From: Candidatus Moraniibacteriota bacterium
GTDB taxonomy: Bacteria > Patescibacteriota > Minisyncoccia > Moranbacterales > UBA9337
Assembly (NCBI GenBank): GCA_049287345.1
Contig: JBAQFQ010000010.1
Coordinates: 7,795 to 71,794, forward strand
Length of the DNA: 64,000 nucleotides
Direction: 5' to 3'
The translations under genes were made by a program, and so were the position numbers. The notes beneath the pieces were generated by a model. The model worked only from the letters and a program-made list of their open reading frames with translations, was not told the origin of the DNA and ran no database searches. Of the stretch, positions 65 to 55,290 are shown piece by piece. How positions within the stretch are numbered: the stretch's first letter is position 1; every line of letters starts with the position of its first letter.

Positions 65-136
65 TGGGACCAGAGGGATTCGAACCCCCGACCAAGCGAT
101 TATGAGTCGCCTGCTCTACCACTGAGCTATGGTCCC
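65..136 (-). tRNA. tRNA-Met/Ile2 (anticodon CAT)
   Basis: Minus-strand cloverleaf: acceptor GGGACCA/TGGTCCC, D-stem GCTC/GAGC, anticodon loop CTCATAA, T-loop TTCGAAT; CCA not encoded. Confidence 0.9.
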
Positions 137-249
137 GGGACACATAGCACATAACACACAACATTTAACAAATGACAGACATTCACACTCTGCATCGATA
201 TTTCATGTTTTATATTCTATGTTTTATGTTTCGTGTTCTATGTGAATTG

Positions 250-321
250 TGCCTAGGGTGAGAATTGAACTCACGACACAAGGATTTTCAGTCCTTTGCT
301 CTACCACTGAGCTACCCAGGC
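250..321 (-). tRNA. tRNA-Phe (anticodon GAA)
   Basis: Acceptor GCCTGGG/CCTAGGC (one G-U), D-stem GCTC/GAGC, anticodon loop CTGAAAA, T-loop TTCAATT. Confidence 0.9.
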
Positions 322-462
322 ATTTGTAAATAAATTCCAAATAACAAGCACCAATTTCCAAATAAATTTAAAAAAAATTAAATTTAAATTTGGTTATTAG
401 TTATTGATTATTGTTTGTTTCTTGTTTTTTGGAATTTGTTTTTTAAATGTACTCATTTTTCT

Positions 463-536
463 GTGGGCATACCAAGATTCGAACTTGGGACCTCGTCATT
501 ATCAGTGACGCGCTCTAACCAACTGAGCTATACGCC
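463..536 (-). tRNA. tRNA-Ile (anticodon GAT)
   Basis: Acceptor GGGCGTA/TATGCCC, D-arm GCTCAGTTGGTTAGAGC, anticodon stem CGTCA/TGACG with loop CTGATAA, T-arm CCAAGTTCGAATCTTGG. Confidence 0.9.
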
Positions 537-740
537 CTCCTACTAATCAAACCACTTTATAAAATACTTTGTTTACTTGCCGTGACCTTGTCATTACTCG
601 CCGCGGCGAGCGTCCTCTAACCAACTGAGCTATACGCCCTCCTACTAATCAAACCACTTTATAAAATACTTTGTTTACTTGCCGTGACCTTGTCATTACT
701 CGTGACTGGCGAGCGTCCTCAACCAACTGAGCTATACGCC
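537..740 (-). repeat. Two tandem 102-bp units, each carrying the 5' half of tRNA-Ile (acceptor plus D-arm) fused to a degenerate remainder; tRNA-Ile-derived pseudo-tRNA repeats
   Basis: AACCAACTGAGCTATACGCCCTC recurs at 513-536 (true gene), about 615-638 and about 717-740 with a 102-bp period. Units are about 95 percent identical, lack a T-arm and contain the palindrome CTCGCCGCGGCGAG. Confidence 0.8.
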
Positions 741-817
741 CTCCTGGAATAACAAATTTAAAATAATTTAGACAATATTGAAAATTATTAAATTCCTAGA
801 TTCTCAGATTCCTAAAT

Positions 818-894
818 CTGGTGGACGATACTGGACTCGAACCAGTGACCCCTTCTTTGTAAGAGAAGTGCTCTAACCAACTGAGCTAATCGTC
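818..894 (-). tRNA. tRNA-Val (anticodon TAC), CCA encoded
   Basis: Acceptor GGACGAT/ATCGTCC perfect, D-arm GCTCAGTTGGTTAGAGC, anticodon loop CTTACAA, T-arm ACTGGTTCGAGTCCAGT, then A and CCA. Confidence 0.92.
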
Positions 895-943
895 CTCATT
901 TATTACTTCAAAAAAACAATAATCCCCAATTCATGCAAGATAA

Positions 944-1171
944 GATTCTTTGAGTAAACCCTTCTGCGTCCCAGTTCCTATACAACTATCTTGCGAACAG
1001 AAACATTTTTCTCAAAACTTATTACCGCATGATGTGCCGCGAGTGGGACTTCCCTGCGGGCCTGGGTTCTTTGAGCAAACCCTTCTGCGTCCCAGTTCCT
1101 ATACAACTATCTTGCGAACAGAAACATTTTTCTCAAAACTTATTACCGCATGATGTGCCGCGAGTGGGACT
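944..1171. repeat. Tandem duplication (2 units of about 107 bp, period 121 bp). Each unit is the 3'-terminal roughly 20 nt of tRNA-Leu plus about 85 nt of its downstream flank
   Basis: Units at about 944-1050 and 1065-1171 are near-identical (single C/T difference). Both end in GTGCCGCGAGTGGGACTT, the tRNA-Leu 3' acceptor/T-stem strand. Only the second continues into the complete tRNA. Confidence 0.85.
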
Positions 1172-1238
1172 TGAACCCACACACCCTTACGAGCACCAGC
1201 ACCTCAAGCTGGCCTGTATACCAATTTCAGCACCGCGG
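1155..1238 (-). tRNA. tRNA-Leu (anticodon GAG), class II with long variable arm
   Basis: Acceptor GCCGCGG/TCGCGGC, 3-bp D-stem, anticodon stem CCAGC/GCTGG with loop TTGAGGT, variable arm about 15 nt, T-arm GTGGGTTCAAGTCCCAC. Confidence 0.85.
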
Positions 1239-1337
1239 CCCGCCCAGCTACCTTATTTGTTTTTTATAATAACCAATCTATTTTTTAAAATCACCTAAAC
1301 ATTATAACGCAAAAAATAAAAAAACGAAACACCCAAA

Positions 1338-4974: not shown

Positions 4975-5095
4975 ACTGTCATTGCGAGGAGGTACTCCGA
5001 CGTGGCAATCTCCTTTATTGCACTCAAAGCTCGCGATTTGTCATTTCGACTAAATAAATTTCTGTACTCGGAAATTTACGCATGGAGAAATCTCA
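4975..5095. repeat. Compound intergenic GTCAT-type repeat region (TGTCATTGCGAGG... and TGTCATTTCGACT...)
   Basis: 5037-5095 shares both ends (tgtcatttcgact..ataaatttc.gtactcg.aaat ... gaaatctcaaa) with 55198-55290. Confidence 0.7.
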
Positions 5096-8765: not shown

Positions 8766-9854
8766 CTACTTCTCCAATTCTCTTAATTCACTAATCAGCT
8801 CTTTTTCTCGACGGCTTATTTTTTTTGGCACGATTACTCTAATTTTTACTAAATGATGACCTCTATCATTTTCTCTCAAAAATGGCACGCCCAGATGACG
8901 AATTCTAAAAATCTCACCGTTTTGAGTACCGGCTGGGATTTTCATCGTCATTGGACCCTCGACTGTTTCAATCTCTATCTTGTCACCCAATGTAGCCTGA
9001 GCAAAAGAAATCCCCTCCTCTGAGACAATATTATTTTCCTCATCTCGATTAAATTTAGCGTGCTTTTTCACATGAACATTGATAAACAAATCACCGCTGG
9101 GAGCACCCTGTTTACCTGCCTCACCTTCACCTCTAAGAGAAATTGTTTGTCCATCACTTATTCCCGCAGGAATATCAATTGGAATCTTTTTCTCATTTTT
9201 ATAGATACCTTCTCCCTTGCAGTGACGACATTTTTGAGTGTAAATACTTCCCTGACCCTTACATTTATCACAAACTGCTTCTTGGGCAATAGTGCCTAAA
9301 ATTGTTCGAATTGATTTTCTTATTTTACCCGTGCCATGACAATCACTACAGGTTTCTTTTTTTGAGCCTCTCTCGCCCCCCTCTCCGCCGCAATGATCGC
9401 AAACTACATTTTTATACAAACTAATTTCTTTTCTAGTTCCTGTTACCATTTCAAAAAAACTTATTTCAATATCTACCTGAATATCCCTACCCACCTCCTG
9501 ATGATAACCACTTCTCCCACCACCAAAAATATCAGAAAAAACATCTTCCCAACCACTGGCACCAGAAAATCCACCAAATCCACCCTGCCCAAAACCAGAA
9601 AACCCCTCAAACCCACCAGAAAACCCACCCCCTCCAGCTCCTGAGCCGTTAAAAGTTTGACCGAATTGATCATATTGCGATCGCTTAGCTTTATCTGATA
9701 AAACCTGATAAGCCTCGTTAATTTCCTTGAACTTATCTTCATTACCGCCAGCTTTGTCGGGATGATGTTGATGTGCCAGCTTACGATAAGCTTTTTTAAT
9801 CTCGTCTTCAGAGGCACCTTTTTCCACTCCTAATATTTTATAATAATCAGCCAT
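8766..9854 (-). CDS. dnaJ: Molecular chaperone DnaJ
   Basis: J-domain with HPD, G/F-rich region, four CxxCxGxG zinc-finger repeats, C-terminal domains. Confidence 0.95.
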
Positions 9855-9909
9855 ACAATTAAGTTTAAAATCTATTTTTACTTTAATAATTTAGCATAAA
9901 ATAAAAAAA

Positions 9910-9936
9910 TTAGCAATCATCAAGAGTGAGTGCTAA
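9910..9936. promoter_or_regulatory. CIRCE operator (HrcA site) upstream of dnaJ
   Basis: TTAGCAATC-N9-GAGTGCTAA versus consensus TTAGCACTC-N9-GAGTGCTAA. A TTAGCA-17-TATATT promoter-like sequence overlaps on the minus strand (about 9937-9968). Confidence 0.7.
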
Positions 9937-9964
9937 AATATAAATTCACTACTAAATACTGCTA

Positions 9965-10068
9965 AAAGGTATTAGCCCCGGAGCAAGCCCTGGAATCTAC
10001 TTTCAGCAAGCTGCGGAGAATTTACTCAAAACGAGCTCGTCTACCGAAGCCTGGGCGTAAGTAGACTA
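9965..10068. repeat. About 100-nt conserved intergenic element, copy 1 (candidate ncRNA or REP-like element)
   Basis: About 85 percent identical to 12306-12411; contains the perfect palindrome ACGAGCTCGT and GCAAGC..GCAAGCTGC. Partial third copy at 22308-22378. Confidence 0.7.
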
Positions 10069-10692
10069 AATATTTCCTCGATTAATTAACGGCACAAAGG
10101 TAAAACCCGGGTACTCCTCTTCATAAAAATCATTTTCTCCTCTTTTTTCTAAATAATGGAGATAATTATAGACTGGTATAACCATCTTGCCACCTATTCT
10201 TAACTGATCCTTGAGCTCCTGAGGAACCTCTGTCGCTGAAGCGGACACTAAAATTCTATCATAAGGAGCCCTAGCAGCGTAACCCAGACTTCCATCCATA
10301 TTATAAAACTCTGCCACCTCCTTATTAATTTTTTTAATTTTACGTAAATTTTTTCTCCCCAAATCACACAATTCTTTAACTCTCTCAATGGACATAACTT
10401 TACCCTTTTCTCCAACGATATAAGCCAACAGGGCCGTGGTCCATCCAGAGCCACTACCAATATCCAGGATTTTTTGATTTTCCTGCGGATCAAGTAATTC
10501 CAACATGATTGCCACGGTGGTAGGCTGAGAAATTAGCTGCCCATAACCAATTGGCAAAGGAATATCAGCACCGGCACTTAATTCTAAATCTGAAGTAACA
10601 AAATCAACCCTATCAACATTAGCAAAGGATTCTATAATATGACTAGATCTCAAATAGCCATCTCGCATTAAATCATTGGTTAATCTATTCAT
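10066..10692 (-). CDS. pcm: Protein-L-isoaspartate O-methyltransferase
   Basis: DIGSGSGW motif I, LISQP; ATG at 10692 (the track start at 10698 is TTG). Confidence 0.85.
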   Translation of the reverse strand: MNRLTNDLMRDGYLRSSHIIESFANVDRVDFVTSDLELSAGADIPLPIGYGQLISQPTTVAIMLELLDPQENQKILDIGSGSGWTTALLAYIVGEKGKVMSIERVKELCDLGRKNLRKIKKINKEVAEFYNMDGSLGYAARAPYDRILVSASATEVPQELKDQLRIGGKMVIPVYNYLHYLEKRGENDFYEEEYPGFTFVPLINRGNI

Positions 10693-10720
10693 GTCCAAAA
10701 ATAAAAAAACTAAAAATAAA

Positions 10721-11164
10721 TCAAATTCCCATCACCTGCACAATCACATCTCGCTTACGCCCTCCATCAAATTCAATTACAAAAATATTTTGCCTATCAC
10801 CCAACATGATATTTCCCTTAGCTATTGGCACTACTTCGCTAGTCCCCAATAAAATAGACTTTGCATGTGAATGTCCATTACTGCGACCATCTGAGCGAAC
10901 AGCGGTGTTTCTAAGTTCAAATAAATCATGTGAATATTGATCCTCCACTGGCACCAATCGATATAAGACTCGCATAAAATCTTGCATTAGCATAGCCTCA
11001 TTATGATTAATAGCTAATCCCATAGTAGTATGTGGACAAAAAATTGTCACTTGCCCATCGCGAATACCTGAATTAGTTATTATCTCTCGAACCTTATCAG
11101 TAATATCCATAAACTCAATTTGAGTTCTACTTTCTAAGTCTATTTTTACGTTGTGTATTTTCAT
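10721..11164 (-). CDS. YjbQ/UPF0047 family protein (secondary thiamine-phosphate synthase-like)
   Basis: GHSHAKSILLGTS...IEFDGGRKR matches the UPF0047 signature. Confidence 0.75.
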   Translation of the reverse strand: MKIHNVKIDLESRTQIEFMDITDKVREIITNSGIRDGQVTIFCPHTTMGLAINHNEAMLMQDFMRVLYRLVPVEDQYSHDLFELRNTAVRSDGRSNGHSHAKSILLGTSEVVPIAKGNIMLGDRQNIFVIEFDGGRKRDVIVQVMGI

Positions 11165-11168
11165 ATTT

Positions 11169-12263
11169 TTATTTAGTTAAATTAGTTAAACTATCTTGCA
11201 AAGATTTAGCGGCCACTTCTGGTTGAATCATGGAGATTTCAATACCTGTCTCCAATTCAAAACCTGCCCAAGTCGAAGTGTGTGGCAAAATTTCAATATG
11301 CCAATGATAACGACGGTAATCTTTTCCGTCACAAGGTGAAGTGTGAATATAAAAATTATAAGGAGGATTGTTAACGGTGTGCTTGATAGCTAGCATAGCA
11401 TCTTTAAAAACCGCCGCCAATTTGATTTTTTCTTCGTCAGTAATTCTTTCAAAATAAGGATTATGTTTTTTGGGCATTATCCAAATTTCAAAAGCACTCC
11501 GACTAGCAAAAGGACAAAAAGCTATAAAGCTATCATTTTCAGAAATAACTCTTTTTTTGTGCTGACTCTCATATTCGAGCATTTCACAGTAGACACATTT
11601 TCGTAAACTTTTAAAATACAATTCCGCCCCGTCTATTTCCTGCTTAATATAAGGAGAAATCACGGGTATCGCCATCAGCTGTGAATGCGGATGAGAAATA
11701 GATGCTCCGGCTTCCTTACCAAAGTTGTGAAAAATTGTTATATAATTAACACTCTTTTTCCTCATTAATTCTAAATATCTATCTTGAAATGCATCAAAAA
11801 CTTCGGCTATTTCAAAAATATCCAAATCGGGCAGATGTTTAAAATGATCCTTAGTTACAATTACCTCATGATAACCTGTACCAGTCATAGCAAAATATGG
11901 ACCTTCCTCTAAAGAACGAGGAACTTTACCTCGAGAAAAAGCTGGGTATTTATTAGGAAAAACTCTTAACGTCCAATCCCCATTACTCTTAGAATAAATT
12001 AACACGTCTTTCTCCTGATTGGTTTTAGCTGGATCACAAAACAAACACGAGTCGATATCAGCTTCATCGATTAGTTTATGAGTACTATATTCCATCTTGG
12101 AGAAATCCTCTGGTCGCTTAGCTCGACCCACCGCAATAACCACCCAATCACCCGTAACGATATCCTGCCTTAATTCTGATTGAGCTAATTGCTTATTTTC
12201 GTCCAAAACAGCTTTATTTTTTTCGACTTTTTTTTCCCCTTCTTGGGAAATGTTTATTTGCAT
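11169..12263 (-). CDS. Galactose-1-phosphate uridylyltransferase-family (HIT-like) protein
   Basis: HPHSQ histidine triad-like motif, CLFC zinc motif, duplicated half-barrel organisation. Confidence 0.65.
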   Translation of the reverse strand: MQINISQEGEKKVEKNKAVLDENKQLAQSELRQDIVTGDWVVIAVGRAKRPEDFSKMEYSTHKLIDEADIDSCLFCDPAKTNQEKDVLIYSKSNGDWTLRVFPNKYPAFSRGKVPRSLEEGPYFAMTGTGYHEVIVTKDHFKHLPDLDIFEIAEVFDAFQDRYLELMRKKSVNYITIFHNFGKEAGASISHPHSQLMAIPVISPYIKQEIDGAELYFKSLRKCVYCEMLEYESQHKKRVISENDSFIAFCPFASRSAFEIWIMPKKHNPYFERITDEEKIKLAAVFKDAMLAIKHTVNNPPYNFYIHTSPCDGKDYRRYHWHIEILPHTSTWAGFELETGIEISMIQPEVAAKSLQDSLTNLTK

Positions 12264-12305
12264 TTTTATTTTTTTGTTTATCCCCGATTAAATATTTTAA
12301 TTACA

Positions 12306-12411
12306 GGTTATCAACCCCAGGGGCTTGCCCCGAGCCCTACTTTCAACAAGCTGCAGGGAATTTACTCAAAACGAGCTCGTCTGCCGAAGCTTGGGCGTAG
12401 GTAGATTTAAC
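12306..12411. repeat. About 100-nt conserved intergenic element, copy 2
   Basis: See 9965-10068. Confidence 0.7.
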
Positions 12412-12418
12412 TTGGTTT

Positions 12419-13198
12419 TTATTTTTTTTGCAATTCTTCCACTTTTTTATCTAATTGATAAATTCCTCTTAGCATATTAAACTTTACGCTAAATAAATCT
12501 TTAAATGTACTGATGTATCCGCTAATACCCACCGTGCTATCTCCACTATCAATCCACTCTACTGGCACTTCCACTATTTTATATCCCAATTTTTTTCCAA
12601 TCATCAACAATTCAAAATCCAAACCCCAACGATTAACTGTTGTTCGAGGAATTATATCCGCTGTGGCTTCTTTAGTAAAAGCTTTAAATCCACATTGAGT
12701 ATCTTTCATTCCCCAAAGTCCACCTACCATTTGAATTAATAAATTTCCACCATTTCCCAAAAATTCCTTCCAAATTGGTTGATGCACCTTAACCTCGGAT
12801 TCTTGCATATCTCTGGAACCGATAACAATATCATAATTTTCATCTTTAAATTTTGGCAGAAATTTATCCAACATCTTAATTGGAGTAGCTCCATCCATAT
12901 CAGTGAATAATACAATTTCTCCCTTGGCCTCCATCATTGCTTCTCTTAAAGTGAAACCCTTTCCCTTATTTTCTTTTCTATTTAAAACTCTAACACCCTC
13001 CAACTGTGAGGCGTACTCCGACGCTAATTGAGGTGTATCATCAGTTGGTCCATCTAGCGCAATTAGCACTTCGTAGCTTAATGATTTATTTTTAAAATAT
13101 TGGACGATTGATTCCAGGTGAGCTTTCATTTTATCTTTTCGTACTGCTTCATTATAAGTAGGTATCACGATTGATACGTAAGGATTGTTGTTTTCCAT
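12419..13198 (-). CDS. Family 2 glycosyltransferase (dolichyl-phosphate sugar synthase-like)
   Basis: VSIVIPTYNE, DGPTDDT, FTDMDG (DXD) motifs. Confidence 0.8.
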   Translation of the reverse strand: MENNNPYVSIVIPTYNEAVRKDKMKAHLESIVQYFKNKSLSYEVLIALDGPTDDTPQLASEYASQLEGVRVLNRKENKGKGFTLREAMMEAKGEIVLFTDMDGATPIKMLDKFLPKFKDENYDIVIGSRDMQESEVKVHQPIWKEFLGNGGNLLIQMVGGLWGMKDTQCGFKAFTKEATADIIPRTTVNRWGLDFELLMIGKKLGYKIVEVPVEWIDSGDSTVGISGYISTFKDLFSVKFNMLRGIYQLDKKVEELQKK

Positions 13199-13280: not shown

Positions 13281-14364
13281 TTATTTTTTTAATTTCAAGA
13301 ATGCCTGAATAAATTCATCAATTTCTCCATTTAAAACTGCCTCCGGATTAGTACTTTCAAAATCAGTCCGATGATCCTTAACTAGTTTATAGGGATGAAC
13401 CACGTAGGATCGAATTTGACTTCCCCACTGAGCACTTTGATGCTCTCCCTTTAGCTCCTTCTTTAAAGCAAGTTGCTCTTCTAAAAATTTCTTATGCAAC
13501 TTAGCTAGTAAAAGCTTCATTGCCCGCTCCTTATTTTGCAACTGGGAACGCTCTGTTTGACAAGCGGCGACAATGTTAGTTGGTAAGTGAGTTATCCTCA
13601 CTGCACTATCAGTAGTGTTAACACTTTGTCCGCCAGCTCCCGAAGAGCGAAAAGTATCAATTTTTAAATCATCACTTTTTATCACAACTTCCTTTAGATT
13701 TTCAATCACTGGCAAAACCTCCACCAAGGCAAAAGAAGTTTGTCTTAAATTATCCGAATTAAAAGGAGATAATCTTACTAGTCGATGAGTCCCCACCTCT
13801 CCTTGCAAAAGACCATAAGCATAAAGACCATTTACTTCAAAAGTTACACTTTTAATTCCAGCTTCCTGACCCCGAGACTCATCCATTATCTTTGTTTTAA
13901 AATTATTTTTTTCAGCAAAGCGTAGATACATTCTAAAAAGCATCTCTGCCCAATCCTGAGCATCTACCCCGCCCGCCCCAGCATACACAGAAATAATCAC
14001 ATTATTTTTATCATATTCTCCACCCAGAAAAGTTTCCAATTCCAACTGCTGAAATTCTTTCTCTAATAATAAAATCTGTGCTCTCAAATCATTTTGCTCC
14101 GCCTCGTCTTCTGCAATCGCAATAACTTCTAATAAATAATCAATTTGTTCTTTTATTTTTTCTATTTTTATAATAATCTGCTTAAGCTCCTCCAATTCTC
14201 TCATTACCAAACCTGCCGCCTCATGATTATCCCAAAAATTAGCTTGATTTATCAATAATTCCAACTCTCCAATTCTGACCTCTTTATTTTTTAAGTCAAA
14301 GGCATTCCCGCAAAGACGGGAGCTTACTTTTTAAATCTTCTAATTTCTTTCTAGATTCTATCAT
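13281..14364 (-). CDS. prfB: Peptide chain release factor 2, expressed via programmed +1 frameshift
   Basis: ORF0 ATG at 14364 ends in CTT TGA C at 14295-14301. The +1 frame continues into the 13281..14264 ORF with SPF and GGQ motifs. Confidence 0.9.
14293..14301 (-). promoter_or_regulatory. RF2 autoregulatory +1 frameshift site CTT TGA C
   Basis: In-frame UGA after codon 22 with the canonical CUU UGA C context. Confidence 0.85.
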
Positions 14365-15742: not shown

Positions 15743-16819
15743 ATGTTTAATCAAATTAAAAATATCCAAAAAGAATATCAAGAATTAACCGAACAGTTAA
15801 ATTCCCCGACTATTACCTCTGACTCTTCTCAGATGGCCAAAGTTGGTAAAAGAAAATCTGAGTTAGAAAAGATAATTATTCTCATCAATCAATTAGAATC
15901 AATCACCAATGAAATCAAGGAAAATGGTGAAATTATTAATTCCCAAGAAGATGAAGAAATGACCACTATGGCCATTGAGGCTAATGCTCAATTAGCTAAA
16001 GAAAAGGAAGAATTAGAAAGGAAGTTAGAATTTGAACTATTACCTAAAGATCCCAATGATGGGAAAAACTCCATTGTTGAAATCCGAGCTGGTGCAGGTG
16101 GCGATGAAGCAGCTCTTTTTGCTGGCACTCTTTTTAAGATGTATTCTCGCTATGCCGAAGCTAATCGTTGGTCAATTTCTGTCCTTAATTCTCATCCAAC
16201 GGGAATCGGCGGCTACAAAGAAATAGTTTTCACGCTTTCCTCTATGGATAATGAAAATTCTGTTTTCAAAAAAATGAAATATGAATCAGGCGTGCATCGT
16301 GTCCAGAGAATTCCTGAAACAGAAAAATCTGGCAGAATTCATACCTCTACTGCTACAGTGGCGGTTTTGCCAGAGGTAGAAGAAATTGATATTAAAATAG
16401 ATGCTAAAGATTTACGCATTGATACTTTTGCCTCCTCTGGCCCGGGTGGTCAAAGTGTTAACACCACCATGAGTGCAGTACGCATCACTCATCTTCCTAC
16501 TGGCATAGTGGCTTCCTGTCAGGACGCCAAATCTCAACATAAAAATAAAGATCAAGCCATGAAAGTTCTCCGTTCTCGAATTGTTCAAATTCAGAGAGAT
16601 GAAGAAGCAAAAAAATTAGGTGATGCGCGACTTAGCCAAATAGGTACTGGTGATCGCAGTGAAAAAATTAGAACTTATAATTTTCCTCAAGATAGAATTA
16701 CTGACCATCGCATCAAAGTTTCTTGGAGTAATATCGAGGGCATCTTAAATGGCAACTTAGCGGAGATTATTAAAACCTTGCAAGAGGAGGATATTAAGAA
16801 AAAACTGAATCAAAAATAA
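15743..16819 (+). CDS. prfA: Peptide chain release factor 1
   Basis: PET (PxT) codon-recognition motif, GGQ motif, RF-1 domain. Confidence 0.93.
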   Translation: MFNQIKNIQKEYQELTEQLNSPTITSDSSQMAKVGKRKSELEKIIILINQLESITNEIKENGEIINSQEDEEMTTMAIEANAQLAKEKEELERKLEFELLPKDPNDGKNSIVEIRAGAGGDEAALFAGTLFKMYSRYAEANRWSISVLNSHPTGIGGYKEIVFTLSSMDNENSVFKKMKYESGVHRVQRIPETEKSGRIHTSTATVAVLPEVEEIDIKIDAKDLRIDTFASSGPGGQSVNTTMSAVRITHLPTGIVASCQDAKSQHKNKDQAMKVLRSRIVQIQRDEEAKKLGDARLSQIGTGDRSEKIRTYNFPQDRITDHRIKVSWSNIEGILNGNLAEIIKTLQEEDIKKKLNQK

Positions 16820-22283: not shown

Positions 22284-22307
22284 ATTCGTAAAATTACTCC
22301 CAATTAA

Positions 22308-22378
22308 AAGGTATTGACCACTGGGCAAGCCCTAGGCTCTACATGCGGCAAGCTGCAAAGAATTTACCCAAGGGGAAA
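22308..22378. repeat. Divergent partial copy 3 of the roughly 100-nt intergenic element
   Basis: AAAAGGTATTGACC...GCAAGCCCT.GGCTCTAC...GCAAGCTGCAAAGAATTTACCCAA aligns with copies 1 and 2. Confidence 0.55.
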
Positions 22379-22499
22379 TAATTATTCCATCCAAGACCGG
22401 TCATTAAATAGGTTATACTACAAACCCAAATGAACATATTGCCACCTCTTCAATATCCAACAGTTTAAGGCCTTTTGAAATTTTTAGCAAAGAATAAAT

Positions 22500-50568: not shown

Positions 50569-50774
50569 TAGGAAAGTCTCTACTAATTACGAATCTGTAC
50601 GAATATACAAAAAAAGTCACAAATTTCTTTATCTATAGGGCAAATGACCATTTTTTAATTCTCAATTTTCAATCAATCTTCAATGATTTAATATCCAGAA
50701 AATTCAATCCTCCACTTCTTAAAATAAATTAAATTTATCATTTCAAAAATACACCCAATTTTACATGGTCTTCC

Positions 50775-50803
50775 GTACAGACGAGGCACTGCCTCGTCTC
50801 TAC
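50775..50803. repeat. Hairpin element GTACAGACGAGGCactGCCTCGTCTCTAC, left boundary of the ORF6N insertion
   Basis: Inverted copy at 51513-51538; shares the GGCACTGCC apex with the 4871 and 16873 hairpins. Confidence 0.75.
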
Positions 50804-50806
50804 AAT

Positions 50807-51427
50807 CTATTTTTTCGCCTCCCTAAAACCTATTACTTTCAACTCTTTATCTTTGGGGTCAGTCATCATTAGTCTGTTGATAATTTTAAATATAATCTTG
50901 AAATTAGATTCATTTTTCTTTTCCATTTTTTCTATTTTATCACGTAGTTCTTTGTGAGTTGAAAGTATTTTTCTCATCCCAATAAACGCTCGCATTATTT
51001 GAATATTCACTTGGATAGCTCGATCGCTTTTAAGAACGCTCGAAAGCATAGCAATGCCTGGTTCGGTAAAAACGTATGGCAGATATTTTATATTTTGACC
51101 CCTGTTCAAGGTCACAATTTGTGACCTTGAAAATTTATCATTTCTTGAAGTCACAATTTGTGACCTTGAGTTTTCATCACTTGAGGTGCCAAATTGGAAC
51201 CCTGAGAAGATATCTGCTTCTTTTTTATTAAGCTGAAACATAAAATCTTCCGGAAATCTTTTTATGTTTCTTTTAACTGCTTGATTGAGAACTTTTGTTT
51301 CTACGCCATAAAGCAACGCAAGATCTTTATCAAATATTACCTTCTCACCTCTGATATAGTAAATCTTTCCGATAATTCTTTCATCAGGAATAATAACTAT
51401 TGATTTTTTGTTTTTAGCTTCGGACAT
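50807..51427 (-). CDS. ORF6N-domain (KilA-N-related) phage-associated DNA-binding protein, inserted between fusA and tuf
   Basis: LALLYGVETKVLNQAVKRNIKRFPEDFMFQL and RSQIVTS...LPYVFTEPGIAMLSSVLKSDRAIQVNIQIMRAF match the ORF6N family. Contains an in-frame 39-nt tandem duplication. Confidence 0.65.
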   Translation of the reverse strand: MSEAKNKKSIVIIPDERIIGKIYYIRGEKVIFDKDLALLYGVETKVLNQAVKRNIKRFPEDFMFQLNKKEADIFSGFQFGTSSDENSRSQIVTSRNDKFSRSQIVTLNRGQNIKYLPYVFTEPGIAMLSSVLKSDRAIQVNIQIMRAFIGMRKILSTHKELRDKIEKMEKKNESNFKIIFKIINRLMMTDPKDKELKVIGFREAKK

Positions 51428-51512
51428 TTTGTTTTATGAAGATTTTACTATGCCTTAATTTTATCACGAAATCACCCCATCATACAAACAAAAATTAAAA
51501 AATACCAATATC

Positions 51513-51538
51513 GAGACGAGGCAGTGCCTAGTCTGTAC
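51513..51538. repeat. Hairpin element, right boundary of the ORF6N insertion (inverted copy of 50775-50803)
   Basis: GAGACGAGGCagtGCCTAGTCTGTAC. Confidence 0.75.
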
Positions 51539-51540
51539 AC

Positions 51541-51577
51541 AAAACAAAAACCTCGACATAGTGTCGAGGTTTTTTTA
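51541..51577. terminator. fusA terminator (bidirectional)
   Basis: CCTCGACA-tag-TGTCGAGG with an A-run before and TTTTTTT after. Confidence 0.85.
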
Positions 51578-54955: not shown

Positions 54956-55197
54956 TACTTGAGATTTATAGTATAACTGTCACCTTCACGATAGGTACAC
55001 TACAATAAAAAATTAATTTCACTATTAAAAAAACTGCTACTAAGTAGCACGAGATAATGATATCTAAAAGTTTTAATTTTGTCAAATAAAAAAGTAGTCA
55101 CTAGTAATCAGTCATCAGTAATCAGTAATAAGGATATCTACTCGCAATTTCCACAAACACTTACAGTGGACGAATAAATATAAGCATAATTAACGAT

Positions 55198-55290
55198 GTG
55201 TCATTTCGACTGGATAAATTTCCGTACTCGAAAATTCAGAAATGGACCGCGTGTCGCCTTAGCTTTAGCGGTGGCACAGAAATCTCAAAC
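55198..55290. repeat. GTCAT-type repeat element (TGTCATTTCGACTGGATAAATTTCCGTACTCGAAAATT...GAAATCTCAAAC), long variant
   Basis: Shares both ends with 5037-5095 but carries an extra internal segment of about 35 nt. Confidence 0.7.

Follow-up and report, generated by a model that had tools for sequence, protein, structure and literature searches.

Three short, GC-rich repeats in a 64-kb window of a Moranbacteria genome (the window being the whole stretch of DNA analysed here) are in all likelihood transposase-less derivatives (PATE/MITE) of an insertion sequence of the IS200 group, in the IS200/IS605 family. In each copy a left end, comprising about 16 nt and a G/C hairpin whose loop is CTTG, is joined to a right end that has a similar hairpin and a short T-rich tail. 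We base this reading on the homology of both halves to the ends of elements that carry tnpA, on the empty orthologous sites of syntenic relatives, on the TTAA/AATT and TTAT/AATA complementarity seen across the family, on the lack of terminal inverted repeats, and on the apparent placement of all top strands on the lagging-strand template.

Three copies of one repeat between minus-strand genes

The copies lie at 9962-10065 (copy 1), 12301-12405 (copy 2) and 22304-22376 (copy 3), all in one orientation, with the minus strand of the window as the active strand. Copies 1 and 2 had been described in a first-pass annotation as about 85% identical; the repeat itself was recovered, with a somewhat lower figure of 80-82%. 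A repeat finder gave 82% identity over 95 ungapped nt (9976-10070 against 12316-12410) and a three-member repeat family over a shared 67 nt, and alignment of copies 1 and 2 at full length gave 84 identities in 105 positions (80%) with one gap. This identity is unevenly spread: it reaches 100% across a 7-nt linker, stands at 91% over the extension (the first 34 nt) and at 89% over the left-end core, and drops to 58% at the right end, which forms the right-hand third. A degenerate 46-nt consensus matched copies 1 and 2 only (0 matches expected from 100 shuffles), and the perfect matches to the 19-nt core CAAGCTGCNNNGAATTTAC in the 64-kb window are exactly the three copies. In nhmmer searches copy 1 scored E=1.6e-33, and with a left-end profile built mostly from sequences of other organisms copies 1 and 2 scored E=3.6e-9 and E=3.3e-8. 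The degenerate third copy previously placed at 22308-22378 is real (E=1.6e-19 with the copy profile and 1.2e-7 with the left-end profile); its span could be refined to 22304-22376, with a shorter left end. Profile and core searches found no fourth copy in the 64 kb.

The window has a G+C content of 35%, and the ORF map shows all three copies flanked by minus-strand genes, as had been noted. Read along the minus strand, the order is release factor, GT2, copy 2, galT-like, UPF0047, pcm, copy 1, CIRCE operator and dnaJ; farther upstream on the same strand, copy 3 lies between the gene for a 195-aa protein and GT4. Copy 1 starts 1 nt past the pcm stop codon (TAG, 10066-10068) and copy 2 starts 13 nt past the GT2 stop codon, while the right end of copy 3 falls about 20 nt short of the GT4 start codon (22283), beside a GGGAG ribosome-binding site. 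A 71-aa open reading frame at 12189..12404 on the plus strand does exist mechanically; it runs antisense across the galT-like start and through copy 2, and it is spurious, as suspected. Given that the element abuts stop codons, an integron attC site was considered and rejected, as neither strand has the RYYYAAC...GTTRRRY arrangement and the termini are not complementary. A TR/VR pair of a diversity-generating retroelement was likewise dismissed, since the copies do not differ specifically at adenines and neither is intragenic.

Architecture of the copies

Copy 3, with 73 nt on the minus strand, is the short canonical form, a left end TCCCCTTGGGTAAATTCTTTGCAGCTTGCCGC joined to a right end CCTAGGGCTTGCCCAGTGGTCAATACCTTTTAA with no extension. 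It is colinear with the canonical element from nucleotide 1, that is TCCCCTTGGGTAAATT, the left hairpin, a short linker, the right hairpin and GTCAATACCTTTTAA. Copies 1 and 2 have the same parts in the order TCGTTTTGAGTAAATT, left-hairpin remnant, AAAGTAG, right hairpin and a tail ending in ACCTTTTAG or AACCTGTAA, preceded on the 5' side by 31 extra nucleotides, TCTACYTACGCCCARGCTTCGGYAGACGAGC. In copy 1 (104 nt, minus strand, delimited by nhmmer and by the empty sites), this 31-nt extension occupies 10065-10035, the left-end core TCGTTTTGAGTAAATTCTCCGCAGCTTGCTG 10034-10004, the linker 10003-9994, the right-end hairpin CCAGGGCTTGCTCCGG 9993-9978 and the tail GGCTAATACCTTTTAG 9977-9962. Its left flank TTTAG (10066..10070), the presumed target/cleavage pentanucleotide, includes the TAG of the pcm stop (10066-10068). 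The remnant of the left-end hairpin, CGCAG-CTTG-CTG at 10004..10015, pairs 3 bp against 5 in the canonical form and has a guide-like AATT on its 5' side (10019-10022); it was read by comparison with the canonical left end of locus L022, TTTAA followed by TCCCTTTGGGTAAATTCCCCGCAGCTTGCTGCG, and with 33 other instances. Copy 2 (105 nt, minus strand) shares the architecture of copy 1, with its extension at 12405-12375, left-end core at 12374-12344, right-end hairpin GGGG-CAAG-CCCC at 12331-12320 and left flank TTAAA at 12406-12410.

Both hairpins, centred on GCTTGC, lie on the minus strand in all three copies. The inversion of the G/C hairpin between copies that had been reported is borne out in the loop, which on the minus strand reads CTTG in copies 1 and 3 and CAAG, in the right-end hairpin, in copy 2. 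At 73-105 nt the copies are too short for a transposase, and there are no terminal inverted repeats, the termini TCTAC... and ...CTTTTAG not being inverted repeats of each other.

The foldback extension of copies 1 and 2 is the sole unusual feature of the three repeats. The palindrome ACGAGCTCGT pointed out earlier is present at 10031-10040 and 12371-12380; it forms the centre around which extension and left end make a long imperfect foldback in both copies, and it is absent from canonical family members. The copy 1 extension resembles the reverse complement of the left end plus linker, with a score reached by 20 of 5000 shuffles; the same comparison for copy 2 was not significant. An extension in copy 3 was considered and rejected, as the similarity did not rise above shuffles (327/2000), and no counterpart of the 31 nt was seen among the other family members found. 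We count the extension as part of the element because the whole 104 nt is missing from empty sites, because the outer flanks TTTAG and TTAAA resemble the family target and because copies 1 and 2 still start with TCT, as canonical left ends do. Since the extension has no counterpart, the left boundary of copies 1 and 2 is supported by two observations only, the empty sites and the flanks TTTAG and TTAAA. These copies would form a sub-lineage with a 31-nt inverted partial duplication of the left end, placed a few nucleotides in from its start.

Empty orthologous sites in related Moranbacteria

Syntenic relatives were obtained through homologues of the galT-like and 195-aa proteins. The pcm-dnaJ spacer that holds copy 1 measures 211 nt in the window against 111 nt in L052 and 112 nt in L053; copy 1 is absent from both, where the CIRCE operator and everything downstream of it align and 104 nt are missing. 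Copy 2 is absent from the GT2-galT spacer of all four relatives compared at that site (155 nt in the window; 69 nt in L052, 100 nt in L053, 100 nt in L055 and 65 nt in L061). The spacer between the 195-aa gene and GT4, 217 nt long in the window, is 47 nt in L061 and L062, relatives of 70% identity in which copy 3 is absent. The empty-site relatives are 70-85% identical at the protein level, and at that distance the absence could reflect precise excision instead of lineage-specific insertion; mobility is implied either way. At the empty pcm sites CTTTAA is followed by AATAG (L052) and ATTTAA by TTTTT (L053), with TAA as the stop codon, where the window has ...ATTTAG followed by the TCTAC of the element. 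As for a target-site duplication, the right ends close in TTTAG, TTTAA or TGTAA and so mimic a repeat of the left flank, and the flanks of the relatives are too diverged for a junction at nucleotide level.

Copy 3 was found at the same site in the near-identical strains L058-L060, whose flanking protein is 97-98% identical. Between these strains and the window, 6 of 72 positions of the copy differ, against a divergence of 2.3-3.1% for the 1.85 kb around it (Fisher p=0.008 and 0.03), and the versions in L058-L060 are nearer to the canonical hairpins and less decayed than that of the window. The faster divergence relative to the flanks, together with the more canonical state in the strains, indicates that the window copy is decaying and is not conserved.

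These comparisons bear on the earlier proposal of a candidate ncRNA, namely a structured or cis-regulatory RNA that would be cotranscribed with the minus-strand genes and act between a stop codon and the next start. The copies are indeed intergenic and oriented as the flanking genes are, the minus strand of copy 1 folds to -35.3 kcal/mol, copies 1 and 2 differ by some substitutions that preserve pairs (G-C to G-U or A-U), and the left end of IS200 is a known source of regulatory RNAs in Salmonella (PMC4513863, PMC5435999). However, the folds are no better than those of shuffled sequences, with non-significant z-scores from -1.65 to +0.89 over both strands (-1.65, +0.06 and -0.12 on the minus strand of copies 1, 2 and 3), and Rfam returned no match at the element, whether for the whole window at gathering thresholds, for 9800-12600 at E<=10 or for 20 related loci. 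Compensatory substitutions, suggested at the outset as a sign of an RNA, did not appear either: the differences between copies break hairpin pairs and do not compensate. The repeat is moreover absent from the orthologous spacers, it differs at 6 of 72 positions where its flanks diverge by 2-3%, and the downstream genes (dnaJ, galT-like, GT4) are functionally unrelated. An RNA gene is therefore barely credible, and we dropped that part of the proposal in favour of a mobile-element origin.

The repeat ends match those of tnpA-bearing elements elsewhere

A scan with the conserved core CAAGCTGCNNNGAATTTACNCAA returned 13 loci in a collection of one genome per species and 35 loci in metagenome contigs. 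About eight of these were chance matches in coding regions of high-GC organisms; the remaining loci share a common module, CGCAGCAAGCTGCGGGGAATTTACCCAAAnnGATTAAA in the plus orientation of the window, followed by unrelated flanks. Among the hosts of the module are a Chlamydiae MAG, a Planctomycetales MAG, Binatia and Raymondbacteria, and plasmids from Pseudanabaena, Ca. Megaera, Trichlorobacter, Chlorohelix and Leptolyngbya carry it without annotation. A nearly invariant 40-nt left end thus occurs in at least seven phyla, the same left end being seen in Chlamydiota, Planctomycetota, Binatota, Raymondbacteria, Cyanobacteria, Rickettsiales and Patescibacteria. Similarity to the window copies extends over about 75 nt in the Planctomycetales locus L005, where it takes in the second hairpin and the tail ATACCTTTTA. 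Several contigs of the Chlamydiae MAG end 88 nt from the module, a pattern typical of repeats at which assemblies break.

Other identities for the module were considered and set aside. A CRISPR or solitary repeat (a 38-nt module ending in GATTAAA) does not fit one copy per locus and the absence of spacer periodicity. A short peptide, AASCGEFTQKD*, was discounted, as a 1-nt indel just before its 'stop' varies among family members. A 5'UTR or promoter element, suggested by L001, L005 and L006, is contradicted by the unrelated neighbour genes and by a different orientation to genes in the window. The right end of a TnpB omega-RNA was abandoned when the module turned out to be a left end, that of an element with tnpA only.

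Three loci, L050 on the Ca. Megaera plasmid and the metagenome contigs L022 and L036, have the module in reverse complement at 13-45 nt ahead of an open reading frame of the form MSKYIHKSHN...YH(I/L)V..AKYRR. In L022 the distance is 34 nt and the frame is complete, encoding a 156-aa protein that matches Pfam Y1_Tnp, 'Transposase IS200 like', with E=3.4e-38. The same hairpin, CCCCGCAGCTTGCTGCGGGG, occurs again 27 nt past the tnpA stop codon, which gives the layout TTTAA, TCCCTTTGGGTAAATTCCCCGCAGCTTGCTGCG ... tnpA ... CCCCGCAGCTTGCTGCGGGGAGGTTCAT. By this layout the L022 element is of IS200 type, with the same hairpin on the same strand at both ends, and the window module is its left end.

The window copies resemble such elements at either side. 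Their left-end core is colinear with the left end of the tnpA-bearing L022, L036 and L050, and their right-end hairpin and tail resemble the right ends of the same three elements and that of L051 (CCCCGCTGCTTGCGGCGGGGTTGTTTATTC, beside an enterobacterial IS200-like tnpA). As in IS200, the subterminal hairpins are on one strand, there are no terminal inverted repeats, and insertion is 3' of a short specific sequence. The copies differ from IS200 in having no transposase gene and no 5'UTR stem-loop, in their degraded hairpins and in their size of 73-105 nt, compared with about 700 nt for the full insertion sequence.

A deletion series without tnpA bridges this difference in size. The longest members are 165-nt elements made up of a left end, a long stem-loop of 5'UTR type, a start-codon remnant and a right end. 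In the middle are 98-nt elements from metagenomes, whose right end CCCCGTCCGCTTGCGGCGGGGTTGTTTAT is 88-94% identical to the right end beside IS200-like tnpA sequences of enterobacterial plasmids, and the 73-76-nt two-hairpin form to which L005 and copy 3 belong. The shortest are 44-nt elements in which one hairpin serves both ends (L031, L038). By linking the full insertion sequence to the window copies, the series supports a non-autonomous IS200 derivative.

Such derivatives have a precedent in the PATEs of haloarchaea, which are transposase-less relatives of IS200/IS605 elements with 'terminal-only' versions that arise by deletion between two similar palindromes (PMC3119063). The window copies fall under the definition of a PATE in that study: they are too short for a transposase, have near-terminal IS200/IS605-related palindromes without terminal inverted repeats, show a longer distance from start to palindrome at the 5' end and carry a 4-5 nt targeting sequence on the 5' side. 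Their family likewise includes terminal-only forms, here the single-hairpin L031 and L038. In contrast to PATEs, the present host belongs to Patescibacteria/CPR and is not a haloarchaeon, the parent is of IS200 type (tnpA-only) and not of IS605/IS1341 type (tnpB), and a foldback extension like that of copies 1 and 2 is not described for PATEs.

Searches elsewhere added little. The phage collection gave no match to the element, the E. coli genome collection gave none at E<=0.1 with a 98-nt miniature element as query, and the plasmid collection queried with copy 1 gave one weak match of 42 nt only. A literature search for the core sequence string found no paper.

Target site and guide pairing

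Within the family, TTAA directly borders the left end on its outer side in 32 of 33 distinct canonical instances, and AATT stands immediately 5' of the left hairpin, again in 32 of 33. At the right end, AATA precedes the hairpin and TTAT follows it by 5-8 nt in 16 instances; the right end of L022 has a covarying GATA with TCAT. All three window copies keep the AATT. Their left flanks fit the family target in copies 1 (TTTAG) and 2 (TTAAA) but not in copy 3 (TATT), and the guide/cleavage complementarity of the right end is not evident in the window copies, nor in L005.

Guide and cleavage tetranucleotides are complementary at every position once positions 1 and 2 are exchanged. A pairing register swapped in this way is reportedly known from crystal-structure work on IS608. 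The same register would also fit the IS608 pair TTAC/AAAG, which suggests that the two systems correspond. In IS608 (PMC3201880), 'guide' tetranucleotides on the 5' side of the hairpins recognise the cleavage sites by base pairing, and the left cleavage site lies outside the element, 19 nt from the hairpin, with the right one inside, 10 nt away. In the present family the left cleavage site precedes its hairpin by 16 nt, and the right one follows its hairpin by 8 nt. The ends are therefore asymmetric, as in IS608/ISDra2 (16 + 8 nt here; 19 + 10 nt in IS608), and the cleavage tetranucleotide is complementary to the guide in both, with TTAA/AATT, TTAT/AATA and TCAT/GATA in the family and TTAC/AAAG in IS608. 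Unlike IS608/ISDra2, the family has a TTTAA-like target in place of TTAC or TTGAT and no tnpB; the sequences themselves differ, and the family is known here from sequence.

The orientation of the copies also agrees with these systems. GC skew of the plus strand is uniformly negative across the window (-0.08 to -0.37), so that the top strand of each copy coincides with the G-rich one. This is consistent with the top strands lying on the lagging-strand template, three copies being too few for more than consistency. A lagging-strand-template orientation has been reported for the IS200/IS605 family (PMC5027513), and IS608/ISDra2 share it.

By analogy with these elements, a Y1/HUH transposase, TnpA, supplied in trans would bind the two subterminal hairpins in single-stranded DNA ('peel and paste') and would cleave at short sites, recognised through pairing with the tetranucleotide that immediately precedes each hairpin on its 5' side. 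The strand so released would then reinsert 3' of a specific short target, TTTAA-like for this family. Such a target often coincides with a stop codon in an AT-rich genome, which would account for copies that abut stop codons, and copy 1 would stand directly behind pcm because the pcm stop codon is part of the target. We infer that the window copies were inserted in this way, by TnpA acting in trans.

Decay of the copies and possible secondary roles

The window copies are probably old relics that are no longer mobile. Folded as single-stranded DNA, copies 1, 2 and 3 gave z-scores of +0.37, -0.26 and +0.61 relative to shuffles; canonical members form two clean hairpins, with z-scores of -2.9, -2.35 and -5.1. 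The canonical left hairpin has 5 bp, or 9 bp where CCCC and GGGG pair too. In the window, copy 1 retains 3 bp of it, copy 2 retains 2 bp plus a G·T pair, and copy 3 retains 4 bp interrupted by a mismatch; overall the window hairpins are degraded to 3-4 bp. The right-hairpin segment of copy 2 matches that of copy 1 at 17 of 25 positions when reverse-complemented and at 14 of 24 directly. The reversed loop is consistent with a quasi-palindrome flip by template switching, the alternative being two point changes in the loop. No tnpA or Y1 transposase was found in the 64-kb window (tblastn with TnpA, best E=2.3), nor any tnpA in about 150 kb of related Moranbacteria loci. It is on these grounds, namely the degraded hairpins, the flipped right-end hairpin of copy 2 and the lack of a tnpA nearby, that we regard the relics as probably immobile.

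Immobile relics might still have been co-opted as transcription punctuation, either as a terminator behind the upstream gene or as part of a promoter for the downstream gene. In Salmonella the left-end hairpin of IS200 (nt 12-34) is a bidirectional rho-independent terminator, and the 5'UTR yields regulatory RNAs (PMC4513863); in the window the copies are placed exactly between co-directional genes, and a promoter-like match of sigma-70 type, TTAGCA-17-TATATT, spans the right end of copy 1 immediately before the dnaJ CIRCE operator. Nevertheless, a consensus scan found no terminator-like site overlapping the copies, the hairpins are only 3-4 bp with no U tract, promoter-like matches are at shuffle level (13 found, 9.9 +/- 3.1 expected), and relatives express the same genes without the element. 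We consider such co-option very unlikely, though a secondary role for the relics is conceivable by analogy with Salmonella.

The term 'REP-like repeat' used for these sequences at first holds in so far as they are hairpin-bearing, transposase-less repeats with IS200-type ends; they are not REPs in the strict sense. REPs are mobilised by Y1/HUH-family transposases. RAYTs are homologues of IS200 TnpA (PMC2817692). A REP/REPIN-type repeat maintained by a domesticated RAYT of the host would share with the window copies their short, intergenic G/C hairpins related to IS200/IS605 ends, and copies 1 and 2 hold two inverted hairpin-like units in a long foldback, as a REPIN does. However, there are only three copies per 64 kb and none in about 150 kb of relatives, the sites compared in L052, L053, L055, L061 and L062 being empty, neither a Y1 transposase nor a RAYT homologue was found in the window, and the 5' GTAG/GTGG tetranucleotide is absent. 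The ends are instead homologous to those of a classical tnpA-bearing insertion sequence with distinct left and right ends, and, unlike host-specific REPs, the end sequence crosses at least seven phyla. Maintenance by a RAYT is thus still less probable than co-option.

A bolder version of the IS200-derivative reading holds that copies 1 and 2 are a new, foldback-extended IS200-derived miniature that still moves in Patescibacteria by means of a TnpA encoded at another locus, and that the family is a single series leading from IS200 ends to REP-like repeats across phyla. We regard this version as unlikely, although less so than either co-option or a RAYT-maintained repeat.

Significance

To conclude, the repeats are ordinary mobile-DNA debris and not a new RNA gene, and this accounts for three GC-rich islands that lack annotation in an otherwise AT-rich CPR genome. 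The main value of this result is one of annotation, including the removal of a spurious 71-aa open reading frame, and the known mechanism of transposition is unchanged by it. To our knowledge, few mobile elements have been described in Moranbacteria, and we know of no catalogue that lists the wider family as miniature elements. The copies show that IS200-type single-strand transposons were once active in this reduced-genome lineage, and the wider family offers a convenient set in which to follow how TnpA ends decay into REP-like repeats.

Divergence of copy 3 and its adjoining spacer

Copy 3 of the transposase-less, IS200-derived repeat (window 22304-22376, minus strand) was compared with the same site in near-identical strains (L058/L060, 919-1021), whose flanking protein is 97-98% identical. 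The 72-nt element carries 6 differences (8.3%), against a divergence of 2.3-3.1% for the 1.85 kb around it in the same comparison, which indicates that the hairpin element is changing faster than its surroundings. The adjoining 167 nt of spacer show 1-4 differences. About 120 nt of the spacer that separates copy 3 from the 195-aa gene (window 22377-22499) are also missing in L061, a 70%-identity relative whose corresponding spacer is 47 nt long. This stretch may be either another insertion or merely diverged spacer.

Miniature derivatives outside the window

Minimal derivatives of 44-51 nt were found at four genome or metagenome loci (L031, L038, L006 and L014). In these, a single hairpin does duty for both the left and the right end (TTTAA, then TCTCTTTGGGTAAATTCCCCGCAGCTTGCTGCGGGGATTTTTAT between boundaries); the fold z as ssDNA is -5.1, and in size and shape they are REP-like. 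At the locus L024, two mobile elements are neighbours: a 165-nt miniature element derived from IS200 (approximately 2140-2300) is preceded by a group II intron (251-2059; Rfam RF01999 and RF00029), whose end lies about 80 nt upstream of it.

Other repeats in the window

Five minus-strand tRNA genes are clustered at window 65-1239, alternating with direct repeats of 102-121 nt. Among these repeats, the 3' half of a tRNA together with its spacer recurs perfectly (513-600 equals 615-702), and another pair is 99% identical (946-1051 and 1067-1172); their appearance is that of tandem duplications or of pseudo-tRNA fragments. Elsewhere, 48-nt inverted repeats with the G/C palindrome GACGAGGCACTGCCTCGTC (50768-50815 and 51498-51545) enclose a single 206-aa ORF (50807-51427, minus strand); together these may form another small mobile or hairpin-bounded unit. 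A 53-nt direct repeat, CGATTTGTCATTTCGACT...GGAAATTTACGCATGGA, whose copies are 83% identical and 50 kb apart (5034-5086 and 55194-55246), is another small dispersed repeat family. The 113-nt inverted match at 72% between 13558-13670 and 16409-16521 is no repeat element; it stems from a pair of release-factor paralogues with PCRF/RF-1 domains, one on each strand.

The pcm-dnaJ spacer and its CIRCE-type operator

Insertions seem to land repeatedly in the spacer between pcm and dnaJ, where copy 1 lies. In one relative with conserved gene order (L055, 12182-12612) this spacer extends to 431 nt, and different insertions, including the G/C hairpin CCTGCCCGC...GCGGGCG, flank the CIRCE operator on either side. 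In the window, this CIRCE-type operator (9910-9936; TTAGCAATC-N9-GAGTGCTAA, reading TTAGCACTC-N9-GATTGCTAA on the gene strand) is flanked by the dnaJ start and copy 1. The conservation of this operator in L052, L053 and L055, all relatives, suggests that dnaJ in Moranbacteria is under HrcA-type heat-shock control.
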